Notes: generated by a model from the sequence alone, not told the origin. Shown: positions 3,536 through 22,600, numbered from the stretch's first letter. The stretch: DNA of 37,342 nt from Desulfobacteraceae bacterium (GCA_027032655.1 JALVMZ010000269.1:1-37342); one strand, 5' to 3'. Translations and numbers: made by a program.

Positions 3536-3901
3536 ATGAAAAAGTGTCTCGCACTGCTTACTGTCTGCCTGGCTTTTGGCCTTCAGAGTGCAAAGGCTGA
3601 ATGTAATGGTGAAGTCGTGGAAAATTGCGGCAAAGGGATTAATGAGGAAGTATGTAAACAGAAAGGGAGCCTTTACTATCTTTGCCTGATGGGAAAGATA
3701 GCTCCTTCTTTGTCAGGGGCGTTTGTGGACTGGCTCGTCAAGCACAAGGTGGATGTTTGTAAGGAAAACGTTGACCAGATTAGCTCTTTCTTTTCCAAAG
3801 CAGTCAAGGACGAGGACTTCATAGTAGCTTTCCTGCTCCGTGCTAAGCCTGGCATCTCACGGGAAAAAGCGCTTGAACTGGCCAGGAGGATGGCTGAGTA
3901 G
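3536..3901 (+). CDS. small secreted Cys-containing protein of unknown function
   Basis: 121-aa ORF with a GGAGGA RBS and signal peptide MKKCLALLTVCLAFGLQSAKA. It lies in the tra operon directly upstream of traV. Confidence 0.6.
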   Translation: MKKCLALLTVCLAFGLQSAKAECNGEVVENCGKGINEEVCKQKGSLYYLCLMGKIAPSLSGAFVDWLVKHKVDVCKENVDQISSFFSKAVKDEDFIVAFLLRAKPGISREKALELARRMAE

Positions 3902-3914
3902 AGAGGGGGTGGCT

Positions 3915-4286
3915 GTGAAAAAACTCTTACCAATTGCAGTTCTGTTTTTTTCAAGCTGTTCTATCTTCTCTCCCTATTCCTCTGAGTTTTCCTGCCCCGG
4001 TTATCATCCCGGAACGTGTGCTTCCATACCTGACGTTTATCGGATGTATAAAAGGGGAGCTTTTTCAGATACTCAGGAGTCTGAGGGAACCCAGGAGAGC
4101 TCTGCTTATAGACCCTTAAGGTGCAGCTATAAAACTGTCTGTAGCAGTTGTGGAGATCCTCTTATAGGTGAGAGGAGGTGTTGCAGGCAGGAAAAATATT
4201 GCGTTCCTGATAGCGTTTCCAAACACATTGACTATAGAGCAGAAGCTGTAAAGGACAACGCTAATGAAGAGACGGTGGTATGGTAG
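3915..4286 (+). CDS. traV: F-type T4SS outer-membrane lipoprotein TraV
   Basis: GTG start at 3915 follows GAGGGGG. The lipobox is in VKKLLPIAVLFFSSC. SSEFSCPGYHPGTCASIPDVY matches the TraV pattern (..EFeC......tC...), and the position immediately before traC fits the F gene order. Confidence 0.6.
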   Translation: MKKLLPIAVLFFSSCSIFSPYSSEFSCPGYHPGTCASIPDVYRMYKRGAFSDTQESEGTQESSAYRPLRCSYKTVCSSCGDPLIGERRCCRQEKYCVPDSVSKHIDYRAEAVKDNANEETVVW

Positions 4287-7395: not shown

Positions 7396-7939
7396 AGCTT
7401 GGTTAATGGAGCTCCCTCCCTGGAAGAGGGCCCTGTTTTTACCGCTGTCTGTTGGCTTGTTTACTTACCTATTCTGGCAAGGAGCTATCGGTATTTTTAA
7501 TCACTTTTTCATTCTGGTTCATACTAGGACCAACTCAGATTACTTCACCTCGTTTGTGTGTACACGAAGAACATATCCAGTGAGTGAGCTGAATGTAGGG
7601 GATTACGTTTACTTTCCCTACCGTGGAGAGAGGCAGTATCCCCAGTATGGCGTTGCTAATGGGGAGCTCTTGGTGAAGATGGTTGCAGCTTTGCCTGGTA
7701 TGAAAGTTAAAGTAGATGACTACCATGTTTACATAAACGGCCAGATAAAAGGAGCTGTTCTACATACAGATAGGAAAGGTAATCCTATGGATTACTTTCA
7801 CTACGATGGCCCTGTTCCAAGCGGAAAAGTCTTTGTCATGGCTCCGCATCCAAGGTCGTTTGACAGTCGCTACTGGGGTTTTGTTGACGAATCTTGGGGA
7901 TTGCGTAAGTGCTGGCCATTACCATTCTCTGATAGATAG
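7370..7939 (+). CDS. S26-family signal peptidase-like protein (conjugative TraF/TrhP-type peptidase)
   Basis: The Lys box LLVKMVAALPGMKV and C-terminal FVMAPHPRSFDSRYWGFV are typical S26 motifs. The Ser box is not clearly recognisable (TNSDYFTSF). The start is TTG 7370; ATG 7406 is an alternative. Confidence 0.6.
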   Translation: MAETLRAFRAWLMELPPWKRALFLPLSVGLFTYLFWQGAIGIFNHFFILVHTRTNSDYFTSFVCTRRTYPVSELNVGDYVYFPYRGERQYPQYGVANGELLVKMVAALPGMKVKVDDYHVYINGQIKGAVLHTDRKGNPMDYFHYDGPVPSGKVFVMAPHPRSFDSRYWGFVDESWGLRKCWPLPFSDR

Positions 7940-9441
7940 CCTGTAAAGAATAGTTTCTTAACAAACAATGCCAAATATGCAGGAGACGAAAAAGAGGTTC
8001 CTTTTAGTGTTGTTTTGGCTCCATTATCAAAGATAACTTTGGCTATGCCGTCTATATTCACTTCTCCCGGCTGGAATCTTTTAGCATCTCCTACGGTGTA
8101 GAGGTTTTCTAATAGGAACCCCAAAGCTTCAGTGACTCCAAGGCTGGTTATGGTGTGTTCTTCTTTGTTTCCTGCTGACTTAACCAGAATAATTCCTTTG
8201 TTGTTAAGTTCTATAAACTTTTCTATTCTCTGATCTGCTACAGGGGAAAAGTAGTTCCTTCCAAAAGACATATTAATGAACACAGGTGTGTTTGGATTTT
8301 CTTTTTCTATACGGGTAAGGATTTCAACTAATGGATCTTTAAAGGGATCTAATAGATATGCGTTCTTAGTTTCAGATGTTAGGTTTGGGAAATTAATTTT
8401 TTTTATGGTTACTAAATCTTTTTCAAGCTCATCATGTAAGATGCTTTCAATTATCTTTTCTACGATGTCTCCGTGGTAGGTTATTGTAGGGATGGGAATA
8501 ATTCCGTAAATGTATGCTACGGTTGGATTAGCTCCATGAAAGCTGTCTATTACATATATGATTGGTTTCTTTCCTGACTTAAGTCGTTTTTGAAAGGCTG
8601 TTCTAGCGACTTCTTGATCTCTGATTTTGAAGTCATGTTTAATTTTGCTTAGGTATTCGTAAGCTTCTGATGCAGAAACCTCGTAACTTTGGAATGGATA
8701 TTTATCTTTGGCCTGAAGGGCAACAGGATTGTAAGCATTTACTACGTTTACTGATAATTTTGTATATGTAAGCAGTAACATTACAAGGTATAAAAGAGCT
8801 GTTAAAGCGAGGGTTCTAAGGGAGAAACTGACGTTTGGTAGGGGCTTCTGTACCAATAAAGAGTGAATTTCCTTTTGTTTTTGTTCTTTATTCTTAATTA
8901 TTAGAACCGTGATGAGGCTTAGACCTAAGAGTACTGCTATGCTGATTAGTAATAAAGGATTATGGATAATGTAAGTTAGTATTAGAGAGATAAATATTAG
9001 TAGAGGGATAATGAATTTCAGGGCGTTTACAATCTGTTTATCTTTAAAAATGATACTTTCCTCTGTTTTGGGGCAGAATTTCCGATAGAAAATGGGAAAA
9101 TGGGAAAGTTTAAGGATAATGTCTTTCTTTGTTTTCAAAAACTTACAAAGTGAAGGTTTGAAGAGTTTATAGAGTAAATGTGCTGATATCAGCGATGTAG
9201 AGATGCTAAAGGCCAGGATTAATTGAAGGATTGCTACAATGGCTAGAAGTGTTGTGAAATTATCAACCGGGTTTCGCATAGTTCCAATTAATGCTTTGGG
9301 ATTGTTTTCCCTTGTCAGGGTTAGTAGCTTGGTAAGTGAGATGTATTGGAACACTATGAATAATGCTACTATAGCAATAATTGGTAAAATCGAAAGCATA
9401 GCAGGGTGTTCGGAGAGTAGTTGCTTAATCTTCCTTTTCAA
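7870..9441 (-). CDS. polytopic membrane protein with a C-terminal S8 (subtilisin-like) serine protease domain
   Basis: 523 aa, with about 5 TM helices in the first ~230 aa. S8 motifs occur in canonical order: YVIDSF (Asp), TYHGDIVEKII (His), INMSFG, KSAGNKEE and GTSFSSPAYLA (Ser). The last 70 nt overlap the convergent S26 gene. Confidence 0.7.
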   Translation of the reverse strand: MKRKIKQLLSEHPAMLSILPIIAIVALFIVFQYISLTKLLTLTRENNPKALIGTMRNPVDNFTTLLAIVAILQLILAFSISTSLISAHLLYKLFKPSLCKFLKTKKDIILKLSHFPIFYRKFCPKTEESIIFKDKQIVNALKFIIPLLIFISLILTYIIHNPLLLISIAVLLGLSLITVLIIKNKEQKQKEIHSLLVQKPLPNVSFSLRTLALTALLYLVMLLLTYTKLSVNVVNAYNPVALQAKDKYPFQSYEVSASEAYEYLSKIKHDFKIRDQEVARTAFQKRLKSGKKPIIYVIDSFHGANPTVAYIYGIIPIPTITYHGDIVEKIIESILHDELEKDLVTIKKINFPNLTSETKNAYLLDPFKDPLVEILTRIEKENPNTPVFINMSFGRNYFSPVADQRIEKFIELNNKGIILVKSAGNKEEHTITSLGVTEALGFLLENLYTVGDAKRFQPGEVNIDGIAKVIFDNGAKTTLKGTSFSSPAYLALFVKKLFFTGYLSENGNGQHLRNPQDSSTKPQ

Positions 9442-9752
9442 TTTCTCCCTCCTAGTTGTAATTTGAATACAGATCTGACTGTTTTCTTTCTTACCTTATC
9501 AAGTTCTTCTCCAAGCTCGTTTTCTAAGAACCTTGCCTCTTTGCCGTTAACTTGAAGGTAATCTAACGGATTGTATCCCTTTGCCTTTAATAGCTTAACA
9601 AAGGCTTTGACATCCCGCGAAGTTCTCTCTTGATAAGTCCAGCCTATTTTCTTGCCTCTGTATTCAATCGTTCCACTGATTAGCTGTTTTAACTGCTCCT
9701 GTATCATCTGGGTTTCTGTTTGGATTTTGCTATATCTGTCTAATAGTTCCAT
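9438..9752 (-). CDS. hypothetical 104-aa protein (coiled-coil N-terminus)
   Basis: The ORF sits between the Cas4-like gene and the S8 gene, and its stop overlaps the S8 start by 4 nt. No family recognised. Confidence 0.55.
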   Translation of the reverse strand: MELLDRYSKIQTETQMIQEQLKQLISGTIEYRGKKIGWTYQERTSRDVKAFVKLLKAKGYNPLDYLQVNGKEARFLENELGEELDKVRKKTVRSVFKLQLGGRN

Positions 9753-9773
9753 TATGAGTTCTGCGTTCTCGTG

Positions 9774-10520
9774 TTAAAGGGTGGTGTTGGTGCTTTCTGA
9801 GCCGTTGCAAAATCCGTGCTGACGGTAGATGCAGTATTGGCATTCCCAGTTGGCCCGGGGACGAGGGTCATTTCTGAACATTCTGATTATCTCCTCAAGT
9901 TCTTCTCGGGAGATAGATTCTGTAGTCGGGAGAACGACTATGCTTTTACCCATTTTGTAGCGTGTTCTAAGGGTTGTCTTGATGACAAGGTAATGCTCTA
10001 TTTCTTTATCGGGATACTGCCATTCAAGTAAGGCTCTCTGTATTTTAGCTTGTAGTGTGTACTTGTAGTTAATGCTTATTCTCCTACTATTTGGTTGGAG
10101 AATTATCAGTTCCTCTGGACGACCAGAAGTTTCGTTGTCAAATGATAAGACCGTATGTTTAAGTTCCAGTCCCACTATTTTATTGCTGTTATACTGGATA
10201 AAGCAGTCTAAATGTCCGTCAATGGAGAAAGGCTCACCGTCAACTGTAAAGTCGTGGCTGAGAACTTTCTCTTCCTCAAACCTGTTGCCGAATATTTTCC
10301 TGAGGACTTCCTTTACTGTTTTCTCAAACAAGAAACCGTCGTCTATGGCAATGTTTCTAACCTCTAAGTCTGGATGTTGACGGCGGAGTTGGGCTTTCTT
10401 GGGACAGCTTATGATTTCGGTTATTCCGTAGGCTCCATCACGGTAAGATATTTCCCTTCCCTCTCTAACGTGAGCAGATAGTTCTGAGAGAATTCTCTCA
10501 AACTCTTGGAGAAATTCCAT
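9774..10520 (-). CDS. PD-(D/E)XK nuclease of the Cas4/RecB-like type with a four-Cys cluster
   Basis: 248 aa. An N-terminal Cys lies in ISCPKKAQL. The nuclease core is IDGHLDC ... GLELKHT (D...ExK). The C-terminal CQYCIYRQHGFC provides three more Cys, as in Fe-S Cas4/AddB nuclease domains. Confidence 0.6.
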   Translation of the reverse strand: MEFLQEFERILSELSAHVREGREISYRDGAYGITEIISCPKKAQLRRQHPDLEVRNIAIDDGFLFEKTVKEVLRKIFGNRFEEEKVLSHDFTVDGEPFSIDGHLDCFIQYNSNKIVGLELKHTVLSFDNETSGRPEELIILQPNSRRISINYKYTLQAKIQRALLEWQYPDKEIEHYLVIKTTLRTRYKMGKSIVVLPTTESISREELEEIIRMFRNDPRPRANWECQYCIYRQHGFCNGSESTNTTL

Positions 10521-10631
10521 GACTCCCTCCTTGGATATGGCTTAAGTAGTAATATAATCCTGTAAAAAAGGAATATCAATGTTGTAATGTTGTAATTAAT
10601 ATAATGAACCATATGGATATATGGGGTAAAG

Positions 10632-11354
10632 ATGTTTGATTACCTAATCACCGGTTTATCAACGGCCATATCTGTTTATGCCACGATGAAATTTTCCTCT
10701 TACTATCGTGTTAGGGAACCTGGAAAAGCTCGTGAGAAGTATATGGTGGTAGAAAAGCTATCTCATCATGCAAGGAACAAAGTGGATGACATTACGAGGA
10801 TTGTAATCGTTAAAAGTAGTGTTAAGAATGCACTCGGATTTATGGATATAGAAGCGAGTTACAAAAATAATGACCAAGTTATTGTTAAAAGGTATGCTTT
10901 CATTCATACGTTTACTCATGTGTGGTTCGCCCCAGGAAAGGTGATTTTGAAGAAAGAACAAACTTGGACTGAGAAAGTAGAAAGTAATTATTTTAAGAGT
11001 TACTACATATCTTGTAAAAAAAATCTCATGTTGCCTGCAGATTTATTATCTAAGAGTTGGATGAAGAAAATCAGGAAAGTGTCGAAAGAATTCCTAACTG
11101 TTCAATGTACTTTCAGGTATCCTAAGACCTATACTGGTCCGAGATATAGAGAAAGAATTATTGTGTTTGCTAAAGGAGTGGGTATAGTATATGCTAAAGT
11201 AATCTACTCCGATGGTGATATGGATGTATACATACTTAGAGATTTTAAGGTTAGGGAGAATGCACTCTGGTTTCCTATACTTGATGTAGGTAATTGGTGG
11301 ATATATGACATAGAATATTCAAAGCCTCCCAGTTCTGTAAATATTCAAGAGTAA
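10632..11354 (+). CDS. hypothetical protein with an N-terminal TM anchor, directly upstream of the SIR2 gene
   Basis: 240-aa ORF with N-terminal MFDYLITGLSTAISVYATMKF. A 16-nt gap separates it from the SIR2 start. A+T-rich codon usage. No family recognised. Confidence 0.6.
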   Translation: MFDYLITGLSTAISVYATMKFSSYYRVREPGKAREKYMVVEKLSHHARNKVDDITRIVIVKSSVKNALGFMDIEASYKNNDQVIVKRYAFIHTFTHVWFAPGKVILKKEQTWTEKVESNYFKSYYISCKKNLMLPADLLSKSWMKKIRKVSKEFLTVQCTFRYPKTYTGPRYRERIIVFAKGVGIVYAKVIYSDGDMDVYILRDFKVRENALWFPILDVGNWWIYDIEYSKPPSSVNIQE

Positions 11355-11370
11355 ACTTGGGGGGATAAAA

Positions 11371-13103
11371 GTGGCTTCTGCTGTAATAAGATTATTGAAT
11401 AATTTGCTTAAGAGTGATGGGCTAAGGTTTTGTGAAGGAAATACGGTAATAGTAGTGGGAGCTGGGGTGTCAATTCCGAGTGGATTACCTTCTGGTTTTT
11501 CTATCTTGAGTGATTTGCTTCATTGGTTGGGTTTAAAATTGCTTTTAGAATTTTATGTTCAATTGGGAGAAGGAGTGATAAAACCAATATTTGGATTAAT
11601 TCCTGATTTCATTCGCTATCCGAGATTGGAAGTTCTATTCTTTGCAATGAAGAGTTTTTTAAGAAATCTGGAAATTATTCGATTTATAGAAAGATTTTGG
11701 AATCTCTGTTTCTTCAAGGTGAGCCTAATTATTTCCATTATCTTATGGCAGATTTTATAAGAAGAGGAGGGGTAGTTGTAACATCTAACTTTGATTTGTT
11801 GATAGAAAATGCTTATAAAGAACTTTATGGTAGAGAACTATTGAAGATTGCATTTCCTATAGGCGAGGAGGATATTGTTAGTCGTTCAAATTTGGATAGT
11901 CTATTAATTAAGTATCATGGATGCGTTTCTTCGATTGATAAGATTGGCATAGATGTGGAGAATCTTGAATTTGAAGGCTTTAAAGGGAGGGAAGAAGTTC
12001 TATTTAATAAAATTTTTCAAGATAAGGAGAATTTAGTTTTTATAGGTTCATCATTATCAGATTCGTTGGATTTTCTTCCTTCTGTTGGTAGATTGAAGCA
12101 GAGTTTCAGAGTAGTCGTTTTTGATTACGATCCTACTTGTGAAAGTAGTTATAGTGTGTCAAAAGCAAGTGTTACTAATTTGCGTAATTCTTCTAAGTTT
12201 TTTTCACTTTATTGGTTTTTAGGGGAGAAAATAGATGATGCTGTTGTAATAGTGAAAGACAAAGATAATTCTGTATTTGCTAAGTTTATAAATAATCGTA
12301 AGGCGCTTGCTGAAAAAACGAAAAATAGGAGTTATTTTCCAAATTTAGATTCTCGGACAATGGAAGTATTAAGACTTTATGTTTTGAAAGTAATGGGACT
12401 TTTAACTCTTGTTGGAGAGAAAGATATTAGGAAATTGGAAGGTATTAAAGATTCAAACTTAGATGCTATTGTGGATGAAATAATATCTTATTGGGAGAAT
12501 ATCGTGGGGAATTACAAATATAATCTTTCGAGGCGCAAGAATAGATGTGATTATTTAGATTCCTTAACGGAGGTTGTCTTTTATTCGGATGCTAATATAA
12601 TGGAAAGAATTTTGGGATATTTTTTAGGTTTGTTTCTGAGTGTTAAGTGCTACAAGAGTTGGAAAAAAAGGAAGAGGGATATTAGGCTTTTTAGGAGTTG
12701 GTTTCATTTTATGTTGAGAAATTTCTATATTTTTCCCTTTCTTGCTGCGATCATAAGAATTGATAAATTTATACGATTTCAAAAGGATTTATCTCTGCAT
12801 AAGAAGGATATCTATTTGTATAGATTTTCTCTCAAGGAAGAAGTGAGGTATTTGCTCAAGAGAAATAGATTTGAAGAAGCTTACAAGAAATGGAAAGAAG
12901 CTTTTATTTTGTCTGTGGATACAGATTATTTTATAGAAGCTTCGAATTTGCTTAGGCTATGGTATATGGAAACAAAGGATAGGAATATCAGGAGAGAAGC
13001 GGTATATATGCCATTTTTGTATAGGGATTCGCTTAATTTGGGAAAAATTTTAAGATTCCTTTCTAAGGAAAGTGTGCCTATTTGGTTAAGGTATGTTATT
13101 TAG
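11371..13103 (+). CDS. SIR2-family (SIR2_2/ThsA-like NADase-type) protein, about 577 aa, split into two ORFs by a -1 frameshift
   Basis: Frame 1 (11371-11760) carries VVGAGVSIPSGLPSG. Frame 3 (open from 11607, to 13103) carries GEPNYFHYLMADFIRRGGVVVTSNFDLLIENAY. One protein needs a -1 shift, most plausibly at the T6 run at 11655-11660. The C-terminal ~300 aa look helical and are not obviously SLOG. Confidence 0.7.
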
Positions 13104-13104
13104 G

Positions 13105-13168
13105 GGGGGTGTTCACTCAAGTATGTAAAGATTTTTAACCTTTAACTTAAAGGATAGTGGACACTCCC
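13105..13168. terminator. nested hairpin between the convergent SIR2 and TIR genes (candidate bidirectional terminator)
   Basis: The outer stem pairs GGGGGTGTTCAC (13105-13116) with GTGGACACTCCC (13157-13168): 12 bp including 2 G-T wobbles. An inner perfect palindrome CCTTTAA-C-TTAAAGG lies at 13139-13153. Confidence 0.4.
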
Positions 13169-13583
13169 TATAAAGAACAACTTCTGATAGCTCTTATAAT
13201 GCTTTGTGTGTTCCATCCTACTAATTCACAGGCTACATTTTGAATAAGTTGGGGTGTTCTTTGATGTCCCCAAGGTTTCACTCCTACTATTGGTTTTTCG
13301 TATTTTAAAGCGATTTCTATTTCTTTTTGTATCCAGTACCTGTGGGAGACGTATATACCTGAGATTACTATTACTACGTGAACGGGTTTTATCTGATCTT
13401 CAAGTTCTTTCAAAAGTTTTTTCGGTCAGTTTCATCTTCAGGGTCTAAAACAGGATCGTGTTGTGGTACAGAGTAGTTTCTCCACTTGAAATAGGGAGCA
13501 TTATTTAGCATTTCAACGAGGCGGTAATAGTCTTCGCTATATCTCCAAGCATGGCTAATGAAAATGTTGTATGTTTTGTTCAT
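13168..13583 (-). CDS. TIR-like protein of the DUF1863/ThsB type, about 138 aa, split by a -1 frameshift
   Basis: The N-terminal piece runs from ATG 13583 (RBS GGAGG): MNKTYNIFISHAWRYSEDYY...ETDRKNF, ending at stop 13410-13412. The C-terminal piece (13413-13168) reads LKELEDQIKPVHVVIVISGIYVSHRYWIQKEIEIA...VGWNT. The two pieces join at the A6 run at 13417-13422. Confidence 0.7.
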
Positions 13584-14095
13584 CTGATACCTCCGATGGA
13601 GTTTAAGTTATCTGTTTGAGTACTTGTTCTTTGAATATACATTCTCCACTCGGTATTTTCTTCCGATATTAGACTTTCAACTCGTTCTACTAATTTTTGA
13701 AATGCTTCTTCATTGCTTAATCCTTTATATGGGCCTGCTTTAGATAAATATAAGAAAAGCTCATGTTTTAAAGTCTCTGCTGTTGTTCTATACTCCAACC
13801 AATTTTCTTGGTATTTATTTAAGGTTTGGATGCCGCTAATTATTGCCAGTATGATACTTAATAAGACCGTTATGTACTTTGCAGAACTCCAAGTAGTAGA
13901 AAAAGTAGAGGATAAGACGATTAAGCCAGTTACAATATATTCTGTAGTTTTAAGGCGTTTAAACCATTTTTGATTTGATACTGACTTTTCATCATACCAG
14001 TTAAATTGGTCAATTAGTCTGTTTTCAATATACTATCTTTCTTTTTCAGAAAGCCTATTAAATTCTTCAAATTTCTGGAGCTTCTCTATATCCAT
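13580..14095 (-). pseudogene. DUF4231/SLATT-type 2-TM protein with an in-frame TAG at codon 21
   Basis: ATG at 14095 is followed by 20 codons, TAG (14033-14035), then YIENRLIDQFNWYDEKSVSNQKWFKRLKTTEYIVTGLIVLSSTF..ITVLLSIILAIISGI..NWLEYRTTAETLKHELFLY. No ATG/GTG/TTG occurs between the TAG and 13798, which lies after both TM helices. The stop TGA overlaps the TIR ATG (ATGA). Confidence 0.65.
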
Positions 14096-14245
14096 CTTTC
14101 TAGATCTTTATCTCATAATTAATCTAAGATTAGTTTAACAGATCTATATTTGCTTTGTAAAGTCTATGTGTAAATATTGAAAATTGCTCAAACCAAATAA
14201 AAAGATTTGAGTTGGTCTAAATTTCTGACTTAAGTTTTGATATGA

Positions 14246-15469
14246 TTACCATTCTTTCAATTCATGTAAAATGTTCTCTAAGAGTTTTTCTAAAATATTG
14301 TAGGCTTCTTTCAAGTTGTTAAGCAATTTTTTGTGTTGTTGATTCGATGATGGGTTTTTGATTTGATTTGTTAGGGATTCAAAAGATACTTCTACTATAT
14401 TTTTTACTCCGAGTTTATCTGCTATAGTAGAAAACAATAGGCTAAGAGCTTCTTCAACTATCAAATTATCTATTGCTATTTTTACTTTCTGTTGCAATAT
14501 AGATTTTATTGTTTCAATAAACATAGTTCCAAATAACGAATATAAGAATATGGAGAGACTTCTCCTGAAACTGAAGTAATCTTGTGTAGTTTTTAAGATT
14601 TCGGAAATTGCACTGTCTATATCTGTGAATGCTTGGTCATAGGCTCTGCTTATTTTAAAGTACTTGTCTCTGAAGAGAGTGATGTATTGGTTAAGTCTTT
14701 TTATGTCTTTTATAGAAAGTAGATCAATACTACCTAGCCCAAGTTTTCCTATTATTATTTTAGTTATTGCGTTGACTACTTCAAAAGCATACATAGGGTT
14801 ATATGCTGGAGGTAAATCTAAATAGCCGGTTGGTGGGACTATAGCATTGTTTCCTTCCTTTCCAGCGAAGTGGTAAGCCGTCATAAGTATACCGTAAGTT
14901 TGACTTTTTGTGTTTGTGGAAAGCTCATTCATTGGTAATTGTTGTATGACCTCCTCATGTCTTGGTTTCTTTTTTATTAATTCCAAAATTTCTTTATTTA
15001 TCTCTTTAGGTATCTTTTCAATGTTATTCTTTAGGAAGAATGCGTACTGTTCCCTTTGAAATATTTCATCTCTGTAGAATGTGGCCAGTCTTATGATCGG
15101 AAAAAAGAGCTTTTTAAGATCTGTATCTATCACTTTGTCAAGATCTGAATAATATTCTATAAGTTCACCCACGGTGGAAATGTTGTCCTCTGTTGCAGTA
15201 AATAAAATGATTTCATCTATTGGGATACTTTGTAGTTCTGAATTTAGGAAAAATTTGCTGTTTTGTAGAGCAAATTCACGATTGATAATGTCATGGGGAG
15301 GAATTACTATTTTATCAGCGAAGAGAAGATACGTTTTAAATCTTTTTAAATCTCCTTGATTTAGAGGTCTCTTTTTGTTGGAGATTTTATTCCTTAGAAA
15401 GGGATAGTATAGTTTTATGCAATCAACCTTCCTTATATCCTTTGGGTTTTCCGTATTTTGACTATTCAT
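14246..15469 (-). CDS. hypothetical 407-aa protein
   Basis: A long, A+T-rich ORF that starts 28 nt downstream of the recombinase gene on the same strand. No motif recognised. Confidence 0.6.
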   Translation of the reverse strand: MNSQNTENPKDIRKVDCIKLYYPFLRNKISNKKRPLNQGDLKRFKTYLLFADKIVIPPHDIINREFALQNSKFFLNSELQSIPIDEIILFTATEDNISTVGELIEYYSDLDKVIDTDLKKLFFPIIRLATFYRDEIFQREQYAFFLKNNIEKIPKEINKEILELIKKKPRHEEVIQQLPMNELSTNTKSQTYGILMTAYHFAGKEGNNAIVPPTGYLDLPPAYNPMYAFEVVNAITKIIIGKLGLGSIDLLSIKDIKRLNQYITLFRDKYFKISRAYDQAFTDIDSAISEILKTTQDYFSFRRSLSIFLYSLFGTMFIETIKSILQQKVKIAIDNLIVEEALSLLFSTIADKLGVKNIVEVSFESLTNQIKNPSSNQQHKKLLNNLKEAYNILEKLLENILHELKEW

Positions 15470-15497
15470 TGGACTTGGTAAATAAGACTCTCAGAGC

Positions 15498-16340
15498 TTA
15501 ATTCAATCCGTGCCGTGAAATATTTTTCACGGCTTGAACTTTCTGTTCGTCAACTATTTTAACATATCCTATCGTGGTAGCTGGACTTGAGTGTCCCATC
15601 AGTTCCTGAATGACCTGAATAGGAACTCCTTTACGGGACAGCATTGTTCCGTATGTGTGCCTCAGCCGATGAGGGGTTACGTTCGGATCTCCAGCTTTCT
15701 TTCCGATAGATTGAACAGTTTGATAAAGTGTCTGATAGTGCACTCCCAAAGGTAAGACTTTTTGCCTGTTTTCCCAGAGCCATTCAGTATACTGGTTCTT
15801 CGGCATAGGAATACGCCTCTCTTTCCGTCCCTTTCCTCTGACTCTTACCCAGATAACTCCTTCGCTGTCTTTCTCCAGGCTTAATTGGTTGACTGACAGA
15901 GCCTCACTTGCTCTTAATCCTGCCAGTCCCATCAGTATAATGGCTGCCAGCTTCCAAGGGAAACCTTCTTTTGCTCTTTTCTCTGCAATCTTTATCATTT
16001 TCCAGAATACTTCTTCGGAGACAGGTTTGGGGAGATCTTTTTGGGTTTTCGGCTTTATAAAGTCTGGAACTTCTGGAAGTTCTATCTCGGAAAAGTCTCT
16101 GAGAAACTTCCTCAGGGACTGATAGGCTGCTATCGTCTGTTCCCTAACGGAGCTTGAAATGATATTTCCTATTGCGTGAGCGACTTCTGGCTTTGAAAGG
16201 GGGAGCTCTCTGTCTCCGATAGTGGAGAGGAGCTCCTTTAAACGACGGCGGTAAATTTGGAAAGTTCTGGGAGATAGTTTATGTAGTGCGTAAGTTTCCC
16301 AGTTTGATATGGCTTTCTGGAGAGTCATCTTACTTACCAT
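15498..16340 (-). CDS. tyrosine recombinase (XerC/XerD-like small integrase)
   Basis: 280 aa with catalytic motifs GLRASEAL (Arg), HRLRHTYGT (HxxR) and GHSSPATTIGYV (His...Tyr). The N-terminus is SAM-like. An alternative start at ATG 16328 lies 1 nt after the upstream stop. Confidence 0.85.
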   Translation of the reverse strand: MVSKMTLQKAISNWETYALHKLSPRTFQIYRRRLKELLSTIGDRELPLSKPEVAHAIGNIISSSVREQTIAAYQSLRKFLRDFSEIELPEVPDFIKPKTQKDLPKPVSEEVFWKMIKIAEKRAKEGFPWKLAAIILMGLAGLRASEALSVNQLSLEKDSEGVIWVRVRGKGRKERRIPMPKNQYTEWLWENRQKVLPLGVHYQTLYQTVQSIGKKAGDPNVTPHRLRHTYGTMLSRKGVPIQVIQELMGHSSPATTIGYVKIVDEQKVQAVKNISRHGLN

Positions 16341-17352
16341 CCTTTAGGACCGATAGGAGTTTCGCTACCTCTTCAAGAGGTAATCTTTCTTCTTTAGAGT
16401 AAAGTGTTTGTAACCTTTGGTTTTCGAGGATTATGGTCTTAATGAGTTCATATTTGTCTTTATCGTCTTTCAAGAAGTAATTGAGAGCAGGAAATGTAGA
16501 TAGGACTAAAGCTTTATATCTATATTCATCTTTTTGCTCAAAGAGGTGGATTGTATATCGTAATAAATAGAATGATATACCTCCCAGAACTAAAGTAATG
16601 GTTGATCTGATCAAAAGGGTGTGGATATTACCGTCTTTAATGGTAAATAGATGTAAAATTGCTTGGTAAGTTTCATAGAAAAGGAAGGATGTAATGGTAA
16701 TAAATATTATAAATATTATTATTTGAAGCCATAGCCACCAAGCTTTTTTGTTGAACTCTTTGCTGAAAACATCAAGACTTTTTCCTCTGATGAGACTTTC
16801 TATCTCCTCTTTAGCTTCTTTGAGTTCCTGGAGTTTTCTTTCAACATAAGCCTTATAAGATTCTATTTGAGCAAGAGCATCTGATTCGGTCATTAAGGAT
16901 TCTTCCACACTACCATGAATTCCTAAAATCTTTAAAAGAACTTTGGAGATTTCTTCCCTATTCTGAGAATGAATGGTTATTGATATTGCGTTAGCACCTT
17001 CTTTGGTATAGACAATCTGAAAACCGTATACTACGTCAGATCGTCCACCTGCGGTATTTTTATCCAGGTTATTAAATATCATTAGTTTGTTGGTAAACGT
17101 TCTGACTGTAGTCAAGACTTCTTCCTGTATCCTGTTTTTAACGTTTTCGTTGGGAATATTTAAGCTCAGGACTATTAAACCTTTTAGAGAACGAATTAGA
17201 TTAAGGAGAAGTTCTTCGTTTCCAGTATGTTTGACGGTAAACTTAAGTCCCTCCTGAGTTACTTCTCTCTTTTCTAAGAGTTCTTTTAAGAAATTGAGTT
17301 TCCTCTGTTCTTCCAGCAACTGGGCTTGCTGGTTATCAGCTGGCCTGTTCAT
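16330..17352 (-). CDS. coiled-coil protein with a C-terminal 2-TM module (possible SLATT-like effector)
   Basis: 340 aa. A coiled coil (AQIESYKAYVERKLQELKEAKEEIESL) is followed by WWLWLQIIIFIIFITITSFLFY and LIRSTITLVLGGISFYLL, then FEQKDEYRYKALVL. Its end overlaps the recombinase start. Confidence 0.55.
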   Translation of the reverse strand: MNRPADNQQAQLLEEQRKLNFLKELLEKREVTQEGLKFTVKHTGNEELLLNLIRSLKGLIVLSLNIPNENVKNRIQEEVLTTVRTFTNKLMIFNNLDKNTAGGRSDVVYGFQIVYTKEGANAISITIHSQNREEISKVLLKILGIHGSVEESLMTESDALAQIESYKAYVERKLQELKEAKEEIESLIRGKSLDVFSKEFNKKAWWLWLQIIIFIIFITITSFLFYETYQAILHLFTIKDGNIHTLLIRSTITLVLGGISFYLLRYTIHLFEQKDEYRYKALVLSTFPALNYFLKDDKDKYELIKTIILENQRLQTLYSKEERLPLEEVAKLLSVLKDGK

Positions 17353-21353: not shown

Positions 21354-22600
21354 GCCGTTGTTCCGGTTGAGTGCTGAATATAAATTAACTGGAAAGACTG
21401 AGGAATAAGCAAATGCTATACGTTTACAGGTTCAGGCTTTATCCTAAAAAGGAGCAGGTAGAATTTCTGAACCGTCAGATAGGGCATTGCAGGTTTGTTT
21501 ACAACAAGCTCCTTGAAATAGCAAAGAAGGATTACGAAGCAGAGGGTAAAAAGTGGAATTACTACGAATATAAGAAGCTCCTGCCTAAACTGAAAGGGAA
21601 GTTTCCCTTTCTCAAAGAAGCTAACAGTCAATCACTCCAAGAGGCTGTAAAGTGGCTTGATAGAGCGTTCAAAAACTTCTTTGAAGGAGTAGCTGGATTT
21701 CCAAAATTCAAGAGCAAAAAGAGAGTAAACAGTGTATCAATACCTCAGCACTTCCGCATAGAAGGAAACGAAATCAAAATACCGAAACTCACAACACCGA
21801 TAAAGTTCAAAAAGCATAGAGATGTAGAGGGAAAGATAAAAAGCGTTTCTATAACCAAACTTCCATCGGGCAGGTTCTACCTCAACGTTCTCGTTGACAG
21901 AGAGATAGAACCACTACCGGAGACGGACAAAATAGTAGCGATAGATGTAGGACTTACCCACTTCTGCACTCTGTCAACGGGTGAGAAGGTAGAAAACCCA
22001 AGGAACCTGTTAAAAACAGAGAAGAAACTCAAAAAGCTCCAAAAGAAACTCTCAAGGAAAGTAAAAGGTAGCAATAGATACCTTAAGCTCCAGAGAAAGA
22101 TAGCGAAACTTCACGAGAAGGTAGTAAACCAAAGGAACGATTTTCTCCACAAGCTAAGCAAGAGGATAATCGGCGATAACCAAGCCGTGATAGTAGAGGA
22201 CTTAAACGTCAAGGGATTACTCAAGAACAGCAACCTTGCCAAACACATAGCAGATGCGAGCTGGAGGAGGTTCATTTCCTATCTGGAGTATAAAGCGAAG
22301 CTCTACGGAAGGAAACTCATCAAAGTAAACCCGTTCTATCCCTCTTCAAAGCTCTGCTCTAAATGTGGATACAAGGACGAGAACCTCAAACTGTCTGATA
22401 GGAAGTGGAAGTGTCCCAACTGTGGAACGGAGCATGATAGGGACTACAATGCAACCCTAAACCTGCTGAAGGAAGGACTGAAAATACTAAAGGGGTCGCT
22501 CACCTTACGAGCGGTAGGGCTGGAACAGCCCGAACTTACGCCCGTGGAGAGTGCAGTTGCACTCGTTGAAGCGGGAAGCTCCTCTTTGCAATGAGGAGCA
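21354..22600 (+). mobile_element. IS200/IS605-family element carrying only tnpB (IS1341-like); ends approximate
   Basis: Contains an intact tnpB and no tnpA. A hairpin lies at the left flank (21341-21362) and two hairpins lie at the tnpB 3' end (22549-22564 and 22578-22599). The exact LE/RE positions cannot be fixed without a comparison sequence. Confidence 0.55.
21413..22594 (+). CDS. tnpB: TnpB (IS200/IS605 OrfB) RNA-guided endonuclease
   Basis: 393 aa starting MLYVYRFRLYPKKEQ. The RuvC triad appears as AIDVGL (D), VIVEDLNVKG (E) and HDRDYNATLN (D). The zinc finger is CSKCGY...CPNCGTEH. The C-terminus ...VEAGSSSLQ is typical of TnpB. Confidence 0.9.
   Translation: MLYVYRFRLYPKKEQVEFLNRQIGHCRFVYNKLLEIAKKDYEAEGKKWNYYEYKKLLPKLKGKFPFLKEANSQSLQEAVKWLDRAFKNFFEGVAGFPKFKSKKRVNSVSIPQHFRIEGNEIKIPKLTTPIKFKKHRDVEGKIKSVSITKLPSGRFYLNVLVDREIEPLPETDKIVAIDVGLTHFCTLSTGEKVENPRNLLKTEKKLKKLQKKLSRKVKGSNRYLKLQRKIAKLHEKVVNQRNDFLHKLSKRIIGDNQAVIVEDLNVKGLLKNSNLAKHIADASWRRFISYLEYKAKLYGRKLIKVNPFYPSSKLCSKCGYKDENLKLSDRKWKCPNCGTEHDRDYNATLNLLKEGLKILKGSLTLRAVGLEQPELTPVESAVALVEAGSSSLQ

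Follow-up and report, generated by a model that had tools for sequence, protein, structure and literature searches.

The stretch of DNA analysed here, which we call the window, is the entire 37,342-bp contig JALVMZ010000269.1. It carries F-type conjugation genes (TraC, TraH, TraF and TraN) together with a topoisomerase and a DsbC-like protein, in agreement with an earlier note on this DNA that had placed the locus on a conjugative element. The TraC protein shares a 90%-identity cluster with TraC of Desulfurobacterium crinifex (Aquificota), and the contigs related to the window come from hydrothermal-vent metagenomes. Guanine-plus-cytosine content falls from about 0.44 in the window to 0.30-0.39 across roughly 8-18 kb. 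The genes considered in this study lie in this part of the contig, between a Cas4-like gene and a tyrosine recombinase gene (Table 1). They comprise a SLATT gene and a TIR gene on the minus strand and, facing them on the plus strand, a SIR2-family gene that the earlier note had joined to the pair as a new three-part Thoeris-like system.

All three domain assignments made in that note, namely SIR2_2, a ThsB-type TIR and DUF4231/SLATT, were recovered with Pfam, and PADLOC gave ThsB and weak ThsA1 matches. The open reading frames (ORFs) were found where it had placed them, with the SIR2 gene convergent with the TIR gene and with the SLATT and TIR genes overlapping in an ATGA at 13580-13583. The SLATT protein also matches NCBIfam SLATT_1 (4e-35) and Pfam SLATT_3; a hydrophobic segment spans residues 68-93 and is preceded by a weaker one, and the protein is 84-92% identical to intact proteins of 171 or 188 amino acids. 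The TIR protein matches PADLOC ThsB1 (3e-14) and clusters, at an identity of at least 90%, with the intact 138-residue proteins P0049-P0052.

Table 1. Genes and lesions in the cargo region of the window, and further loci carrying relatives of the 407-amino-acid protein
Feature	Position	Strand	Remarks
Cas4-like PD-(D/E)XK backbone gene	9438..10520	-	PADLOC Cas4 matches; one edge of the cargo slot, opposite the recombinase
Nonsense lesion in Cas4-like gene	9774..9776	-	TAA where relatives have GAA
Orphan ORF, 240 amino acids	10632..11354	+	16 nucleotides before the SIR2 gene; inside the window-only segment 10580-13168
SIR2 plus TPR-like alpha-solenoid gene, 577 codons once repaired	11371..13103	+	Pfam SIR2_2, E=7e-6, above gathering score
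Frameshift in SIR2 gene	11655..11660	+	T6 where the intact homologue P0002 has T7
thsB-like TIR gene, 138 codons once repaired	13168..13583	-	Pfam ThsB_TIR, 2e-18
Frameshift in TIR gene	13417..13422	-	A6 run, one base short; single-column gap against L005, L006 and L008
thsH-like SLATT/DUF4231 gene, 171 codons, two transmembrane segments	13580..14095	-	Pfam DUF4231, 6e-23; SLATT_1, 3e-15
Nonsense lesion in SLATT gene, amber codon 21	14033..14035	-	TAG; TGG (Trp21) in L005, L006 and L008
407-amino-acid gene, unannotated family, intact	14246..15469	-	150 nucleotides upstream of the SLATT-TIR pair, co-directional; absent from L005-L010
Tyrosine recombinase (Phage_integrase)	15498..16340	-	Pfam, 2e-22; one edge of the cargo slot
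Relative of the 407-amino-acid protein, L094	1001-2197
Relative of the 407-amino-acid protein, L105	2066-3274
Relative of the 407-amino-acid protein, L107	6724-7845

The SLATT-TIR pair is autonomous. Six closely related loci from vent metagenomes (L005-L010) carry the pair in intact form, and the SIR2 gene is found in none of them; their gene order runs from the integrase through SLATT (171 or 188 amino acids), TIR (with a 4-nucleotide overlap), N6-methyltransferase, SNase and HNH genes to the Cas4-like gene. DNA homology between the window and these loci falls into three blocks, 16334-15559 (integrase), 14099-13169 and 10579-9464 (Cas4-like gene), the middle one of which begins 4 nucleotides before the SLATT start codon and ends at the TIR stop codon. 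The intervening segments are present in the window only: 14100-15558 holds the 407-amino-acid gene, and 10580-13168 holds the 240-amino-acid ORF and the SIR2 gene. We also surveyed 80 SLATT loci, drawn from many phyla among the GTDB species representatives, scoring neighbours within 6 kb. A ThsB-type TIR gene abuts the SLATT gene on the same strand, often overlapping it, in 37 of these loci, and a TIR_2-type neighbour is found in nine more, which brings the loci with an adjacent TIR gene to at least 46 of the 80. Relatives of the window's SIR2 protein or of its 407-amino-acid protein occur in none of them. The idea that SIR2 forms one system with the pair is not supported by conservation: neither in the six close relatives nor in the wider survey is SIR2 kept with the pair.

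The place in which the pair sits is itself variable. At one edge of this slot (~9.4-17.4 kb) lies the Cas4-like gene, whose product has 354-355 amino acids in relatives; at the other lies the tyrosine recombinase, which is kept at that position in L005, L007, L008 and L091. The cargo between them differs in each relative, consisting in D. crinifex of an AAA_15/AAA_21 ATPase gene and a 326-amino-acid gene, and in L093 of other methyltransferase and SNase genes. Breakpoints of homology coincide with gene borders, and the slot is a hotspot for the swapping of cassettes. We consider it likely that the region as a whole serves an F-type conjugative element of a Desulfurobacterium-like bacterium (Aquificota, hydrothermal vent) as its variable cargo slot, and that the defence modules in it are independent of one another rather than parts of one system. 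The 240-amino-acid ORF and the 407-amino-acid gene would then be further cargo.

As for the nature of the pair, a preprint of December 2025 defines type VII Thoeris as a TIR protein, ThsB, with a SLATT effector, ThsH (Yirmiya et al., bioRxiv 10.64898/2025.12.03.692087). Phage defence was demonstrated there for three type VII operons; canonical cyclic ADP-ribose (cADPR) was made in a phage-dependent manner, toxicity was specific to cADPR, and ThsH was modelled as a membrane-spanning oligomer. The same work gives the validated TIR-domain sequences in its Table S1 and places the ThsBs of a Pseudohongiella type VII system and of Yersinia and Pseudomonas type VIII systems in one TIR cluster, and it shows that all three make cADPR (bioRxiv 10.64898/2025.12.03.692087). 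Because this preprint describes and validates type VII Thoeris, the SLATT-TIR part of the locus cannot be counted as undescribed. Once repaired, the window's TIR protein is 34% identical to the Pseudohongiella type VII ThsB over 134 amino acids (E=1e-30). The Yersinia and Pseudomonas type VIII ThsBs are as close to it, with 36% and 32% identity, respectively (weakest E, 1e-25), and the two remaining type VII TIRs that were validated are only ~21% identical to it. The Glu of the W-x-x-x-E-I motif (WIQKEI in the window) aligns with the Glu of WVRYEI in the type I ThsB of Bacillus cereus and is also aligned in the validated type VII and type VIII TIRs. This residue is catalytic in B. cereus ThsB and may have the same role here.

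The window's pair thus resembles type VII Thoeris in being a two-gene operon in which a SLATT protein with two transmembrane segments is followed by a short ThsB-type TIR, in the identity of this TIR to a validated member and the retention of its motif Glu, and in a pairing that recurs across many phyla. It differs in its Aquificota host, in its location on an F-type conjugative element and in the inactivation of both genes. By homology, the pair is the remnant of a type VII member and, unless the lesions described below are errors, not a working copy. In its functional form the module would consist of thsH, encoding the SLATT protein, followed by a translationally coupled thsB. Judging from the validated systems, the TIR protein would, on sensing infection, convert nicotinamide adenine dinucleotide (NAD+) into canonical cADPR; the SLATT protein would bind cADPR, oligomerise, breach the membrane and stop the infected cell. 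The Thoeris logic that had been proposed for the locus holds for TIR plus SLATT and is not supported for SIR2 as a partner of the pair in one system. Elsewhere, on the Escherichia coli IncP plasmid pKMi029_2 (L115, NZ_CP147111.1, 2776-5972), a type VIII-like pair of a TPR-S effector and a TIR adjoins a second ThsB-type TIR, which is convergent with a 287-amino-acid double-SLATT gene (SLATT_3 plus SLATT_1). Two Thoeris-type modules there lie side by side on a conjugative plasmid.

The SIR2 protein belongs to a small family. A word-indexed search retrieved only an intact homologue, P0002 (586 amino acids, 60% identical), and one weak match from Vibrio; an exhaustive HMMER search of 1.84 billion representatives yielded about 12 full-length clusters, with relatives 26-37% identical, in addition to many matches to the SIR2 domain only. 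A tblastn search of plasmids with the SIR2 and 407-amino-acid proteins gave no match, and a scan of viral contigs found no relative of the SIR2 family. The catalytic Asn and His are invariant in 13 family members (N136 and H180 of P0002, corresponding to N140 and H183 of the repaired window protein), and the C-terminal half has conserved motifs of its own (R-F..KE, DTNYFIE..NLLR and D.LN..K; alignment A3). An AlphaFold2 model (predicted local distance difference test score, pLDDT, 85.8; predicted template modelling score, 0.87) shows a SIR2 domain of the alpha/beta type and, after it, a half made up of helices only. Modelled alone, this half is again all-helical (pLDDT 90.0) and gives weak matches to solenoids of tetratricopeptide repeats (TPR) such as LGN, Rap receptors, subunits of the anaphase-promoting complex (APC) and IFIT5 (E>=8e-3). 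No SLOG domain was found in it by Pfam or NCBIfam. Since it is all-helical and weakly matches TPR solenoids, the earlier note was right to see helical repeats rather than a SLOG domain here, as the models and the structure search bear out. A transmembrane hairpin in the C-terminal domain was considered and is not supported for the window protein.

In Foldseek searches the best matches in the PDB are chains of DSR2 (E=3e-5, ~700 columns, template modelling score, TM-score, ~0.3), followed by SPARSA, KomC/HAM-SIR2, ThsA and SIR2-HerA, all of them defence NADases. With DSR2 of Bacillus subtilis the window protein shares an N-terminal SIR2 NADase domain with the catalytic Asn and His, followed by a predicted alpha-helical solenoid. 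It differs in its size (~580 versus ~1000 amino acids), in an identity of 12-14% and a TM-score that stays near 0.3, in showing no evident MID domain and in its own C-terminal motifs. Also relevant to this comparison is that members of the family mostly stand alone in defence islands, and that 10 of their 12 contexts hold no TIR gene at all. The neighbours are a ParE-like toxin-antitoxin pair around P0002 (L001-L004), lactonase and thioredoxin (L095), a CI repressor and DnaB (L097), a ResIII/HsdR-type helicase gene in L100 and otherwise housekeeping genes (L100-L102), FRG, a second SIR2-like gene and DUF4062 (L103 and L109-L111), and type I restriction-modification and GmrSD (L112-L114). In L109, L110 and L111 a SIR2-like gene of 380-394 codons, a 588-amino-acid member of the family and a 319-amino-acid DUF4062 gene lie in a row (2494-6571 in L110, for example) downstream of FRG and DUF2971 genes; the SIR2-like gene shows GAG..STNWD..LHG motifs by eye and has no Pfam match.

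Two Thoeris effectors invite comparison as well. Like ThsA of type I Thoeris (SIR2-SLOG), the window protein has a SIR2_2-type NADase domain encoded beside a ThsB-type TIR gene, and its weak PADLOC ThsA1 match covers profile positions 72-198 of 478 only, that is, the SIR2 part. Unlike ThsA it has no SLOG/STALD domain, its gene is convergent with the TIR gene and not in an operon with it, and among its closest relatives no linkage to ThsB is seen. The type VIII effector ThsI, a CMP hydrolase with TPR-S, is an enzyme joined to TPR that answers to cADPR (bioRxiv 10.64898/2025.12.03.692087), and because of this we compared the SIR2 protein with a ThsI-like protein, the one from plasmid pKMi029_2, which matches Pfam TPR-S at 1.5e-17. 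The architecture of enzyme plus TPR-like repeats is shared, with the difference that the window's enzyme is a SIR2 and not a CMP hydrolase and that its repeats carry no TPR-S signal: three C-terminal domains of the family gave no match to TPR-S (PF20308) at E<=1, and hhalign returned a probability of 0.2% for the C-terminal domain against the ThsI-like protein. Most likely the SIR2 gene is an independent DSR2-like cassette that became a neighbour of the pair by chance in a swap-prone slot. It would encode a rare single-protein sirtuin in which an N-terminal SIR2 NADase is joined to a TPR-like alpha-solenoid. From its fold and context we infer a DSR2-like mode of action as the most probable one: the solenoid would recognise a phage or plasmid protein and release NAD+ depletion.

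The gap of 16 nucleotides between the small ORF and the SIR2 gene is as the earlier note had given it. The description there of the 240-residue product as anchored in the membrane is not supported, as no 19-residue segment of it reaches a Kyte-Doolittle value of 1.6. Pfam, PADLOC, NCBIfam and PHROGs gave no family match for this protein; it has no companion in its 90% cluster and no counterpart in any of the loci retrieved. A conserved small partner upstream of SIR2-family genes was looked for and rejected; the proteins encoded at this position, of 240 amino acids in the window, 251 in L112, 256 in L102 and 380 in L109, are mutually dissimilar.

Both modules are broken in the contig. As sequenced, the SIR2 gene reads as 129 amino acids (11371-11760) plus 468 (11697-13103), and the ~577-residue protein of the earlier note is obtained only once the frameshift is repaired. 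The TIR gene reads as 57 plus 81 amino acids, with P0052 running ...DRKKLLKELED... across the site of the lesion. Together with the two nonsense lesions, these make four within 4.7 kb of the cargo region. They are confined to it, because the backbone genes for which D. crinifex offers a counterpart (two small genes and those for DsbC, TraC, a 152-amino-acid protein, an S26 peptidase and the integrase) are in a single frame and full length; the window also has unbroken long ORFs of 885, 916 and 654 amino acids. Poor assembly that splits backbone genes was considered because ORFs overlap in pairs at 922-2098 and 3536-4286, and was rejected, as these match separate full-length genes in D. crinifex. 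Likewise rejected were stop-codon reassignment and programmed frameshifting, because at these sites the close relatives read an ordinary sense codon or stay in frame. The ratio of nonsynonymous to synonymous substitution rates (dN/dS) against the intact copies of L005 is 0.08 for SLATT, 0.10 for TIR and 0.05 for the Cas4-like gene. With values of about 0.1, the genes were under constraint until very recently, and the lesions must be either young or errors.

Errors of sequencing, of assembly or from a mixture of strains would leave the genes intact in the organism and the island with a working defence. This would suit the position of the two frameshifts, both of which are losses of a single base in 7-base T runs (read on the plus strand), a classic site of error, and the presence of exactly one lesion per gene in genes otherwise under strong purifying selection. 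Yet two of the four lesions are substitutions to a stop codon (G to A and G to T), which are not homopolymer errors, and the four are clustered in a few kilobases of a contig with unbroken TraC, DsbC, S26 peptidase and integrase genes. The truncated 57-residue TIR fragment is recorded in the Logan assembly as well as in NCBI and ENA, which suggests that it is not specific to one assembler, with the qualification that the underlying reads may be the same. We regard error as an unlikely explanation. One could also envision the two frameshifts as phase-variable switches by which costly abortive-infection genes are reversibly silenced on a plasmid, given that two genes for toxic effectors are off through a slippage-prone change from T7 to T6 and that their relatives have the in-frame length. 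This strikes us as highly improbable. Runs of 6-7 bases are short for efficient slippage, and chance suffices: since the AT-rich window holds 42 runs of at least six bases and 11 of at least seven, a lesion in such a run is to be expected. Moreover, the TIR site is interrupted in L005-L008 (CGTAGAAAA) and is not a long run, and the SLATT and Cas4-like genes were lost by irreversible substitutions. Because half of the lesions are substitutions and the TIR fragment also appears in Logan, we favour the view that they are real mutations and that both modules are probably dead in this contig.

The 407-amino-acid protein belongs to a family with no match in Pfam, NCBIfam, PHROGs or PADLOC and with seven clusters in the indexed database. 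Its invariant motifs (K.YYPFL, D..I.PP, R..Q..Y, P.H, Y..G..GN.A..P and N..Y; alignment A4) suggest an enzyme. Neither a TIR nor a SIR2 gene accompanies it in L105, where it is part of a Lactamase_B operon, or in L107, where it occurs with a DpnII-type restriction endonuclease, DUF6414 and a nearby R2K ATP-grasp gene. In L094 it heads a co-directional array: a 398-amino-acid member, homologous to the window's protein (31% over 242 amino acids, E=4e-19), is followed by TIR_2 (370 amino acids), ATP-grasp plus TIR_2 (482 amino acids) and SIR2 (570 amino acids). This SIR2 protein, P0175, is 35% identical to that of the window and is its nearest relative after P0002, and a ThsB_TIR fragment lies at the start of the contig. 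The earlier note had named homologues that never co-occur as the sign of chance juxtaposition; what we found comes close to this without reaching it entirely, because L094 joins the SIR2 family, TIR genes and a homologue of the 407-amino-acid protein.

Several points weigh against our interpretation of the slot as a set of independent and decayed modules. The occurrence of two rare families with TIR genes in two distant loci (31-35% identity, n=2) hints at an association, and the SLATT-TIR cassette of the window lies between the SIR2 segment and the 407-amino-acid gene. Multi-effector Thoeris operons are documented, some of which pair two effectors with a single signal, and so are islands in which ThsBs and effectors crowd together (bioRxiv 10.64898/2025.12.03.692087). 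The match to DSR2 is driven by the SIR2 domain, with TM-scores of ~0.3, a large root-mean-square deviation and a protein half the size of DSR2; the window's SLATT protein is likened to ThsH by domain and pairing and not by alignment to a validated ThsH; and the lesions are known from the assembled sequence.

It is conceivable on these grounds that the locus was a composite, multi-effector Thoeris-like system, in which a TIR signal, probably cADPR, would switch on the SLATT pore together with the SIR2-solenoid NADase. The solenoid would take the place of the SLOG sensor, and the 407-amino-acid protein would be an effector or accessory. The SIR2-solenoid protein, and perhaps the 407-amino-acid protein, would then be undescribed effectors for a TIR-made signal. 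In L094 the genes of the 407-amino-acid family, TIR_2, ATP-grasp/TIR_2 and SIR2 lie on one strand with short gaps and with the ThsB_TIR fragment upstream, and the window has the same linear order of 407, (SLATT), TIR and SIR2. Both families are so rare that a twofold co-occurrence by chance is not expected. Two-effector operons and a cADPR-answering enzyme plus TPR effector, ThsI, are among the systems reported in the preprint, and the window's TIR clusters with TIRs that serve either type of effector. Against this, neither the closest relatives nor the validated systems need SIR2 or the 407-amino-acid gene for the pair to work, and both families are missing from all 80 SLATT loci. TIR genes are lacking in 10 of the 12 contexts of the SIR2 family and in two of the four of the 407-amino-acid family. 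The solenoid has neither a TPR-S match at E<=1 nor more than the 0.2% hhalign probability against the ThsI-like protein; in the window, the strand that encodes SIR2 is not that of the pair; the TIRs that adjoin SIR2 in L094 are of the TIR_2 and not the ThsB type; and the association is seen in two loci only. We hold such a system, and with it the part of effector for these two proteins, to be quite unlikely. If it were real, the window would preserve the ruins of a Thoeris island with several effectors, its single ThsB having served a SLATT pore as well as a sirtuin that lacks SLOG, and in L094 we would have another such island, still intact and centred on TIR_2 and ATP-grasp/TIR_2 genes.

Other features of the window can be added briefly. 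Next to the Cas4-like gene, a 523-amino-acid protein (7870-9441, minus strand) has an N-terminal half with multiple transmembrane segments and a weakly subtilase-like C-terminal half; its last ~270 amino acids alone match the 520-amino-acid gene that L005 has in the corresponding place (39%), and in D. crinifex a 357-amino-acid gene occupies this place. Beyond the recombinase lies a 340-amino-acid orphan (16330-17352, minus strand) with two or three hydrophobic segments; it has no family match, is alone in its 90% cluster, and its stop codon overlaps the start of the integrase gene by 11 nucleotides. An IS605-family TnpB gene (21413-22594, plus strand; OrfB_IS605 plus a Cas12f1-like TNB domain) is followed by ~1 kb without an ORF of at least 100 amino acids, and Rfam and transfer RNA scans of the window gave no match. 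Megablast of the island against plasmids found no match, and a scan of the island for promoters and terminators did no better than with shuffled sequences.

The tests of conservation thus lend no support to a new Thoeris-like system of three parts, and what the cargo slot most likely holds is a set of mostly known defence modules in decay. The pair extends type VII Thoeris to the Aquificota and to the conjugative element of a thermophile. The slot illustrates how, between a recombinase and a backbone gene, defence cassettes are swapped at gene-exact borders. Within it, every recognisable toxic effector has apparently been lost by one recent mutation, which fits the view of abortive-infection genes as costly cargo. 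Finally, the SIR2 protein with its TPR-like solenoid and the 407-amino-acid protein define two small uncharacterised families and, because both are repeatedly co-located with TIR genes, may be testable candidates for new Thoeris effectors.

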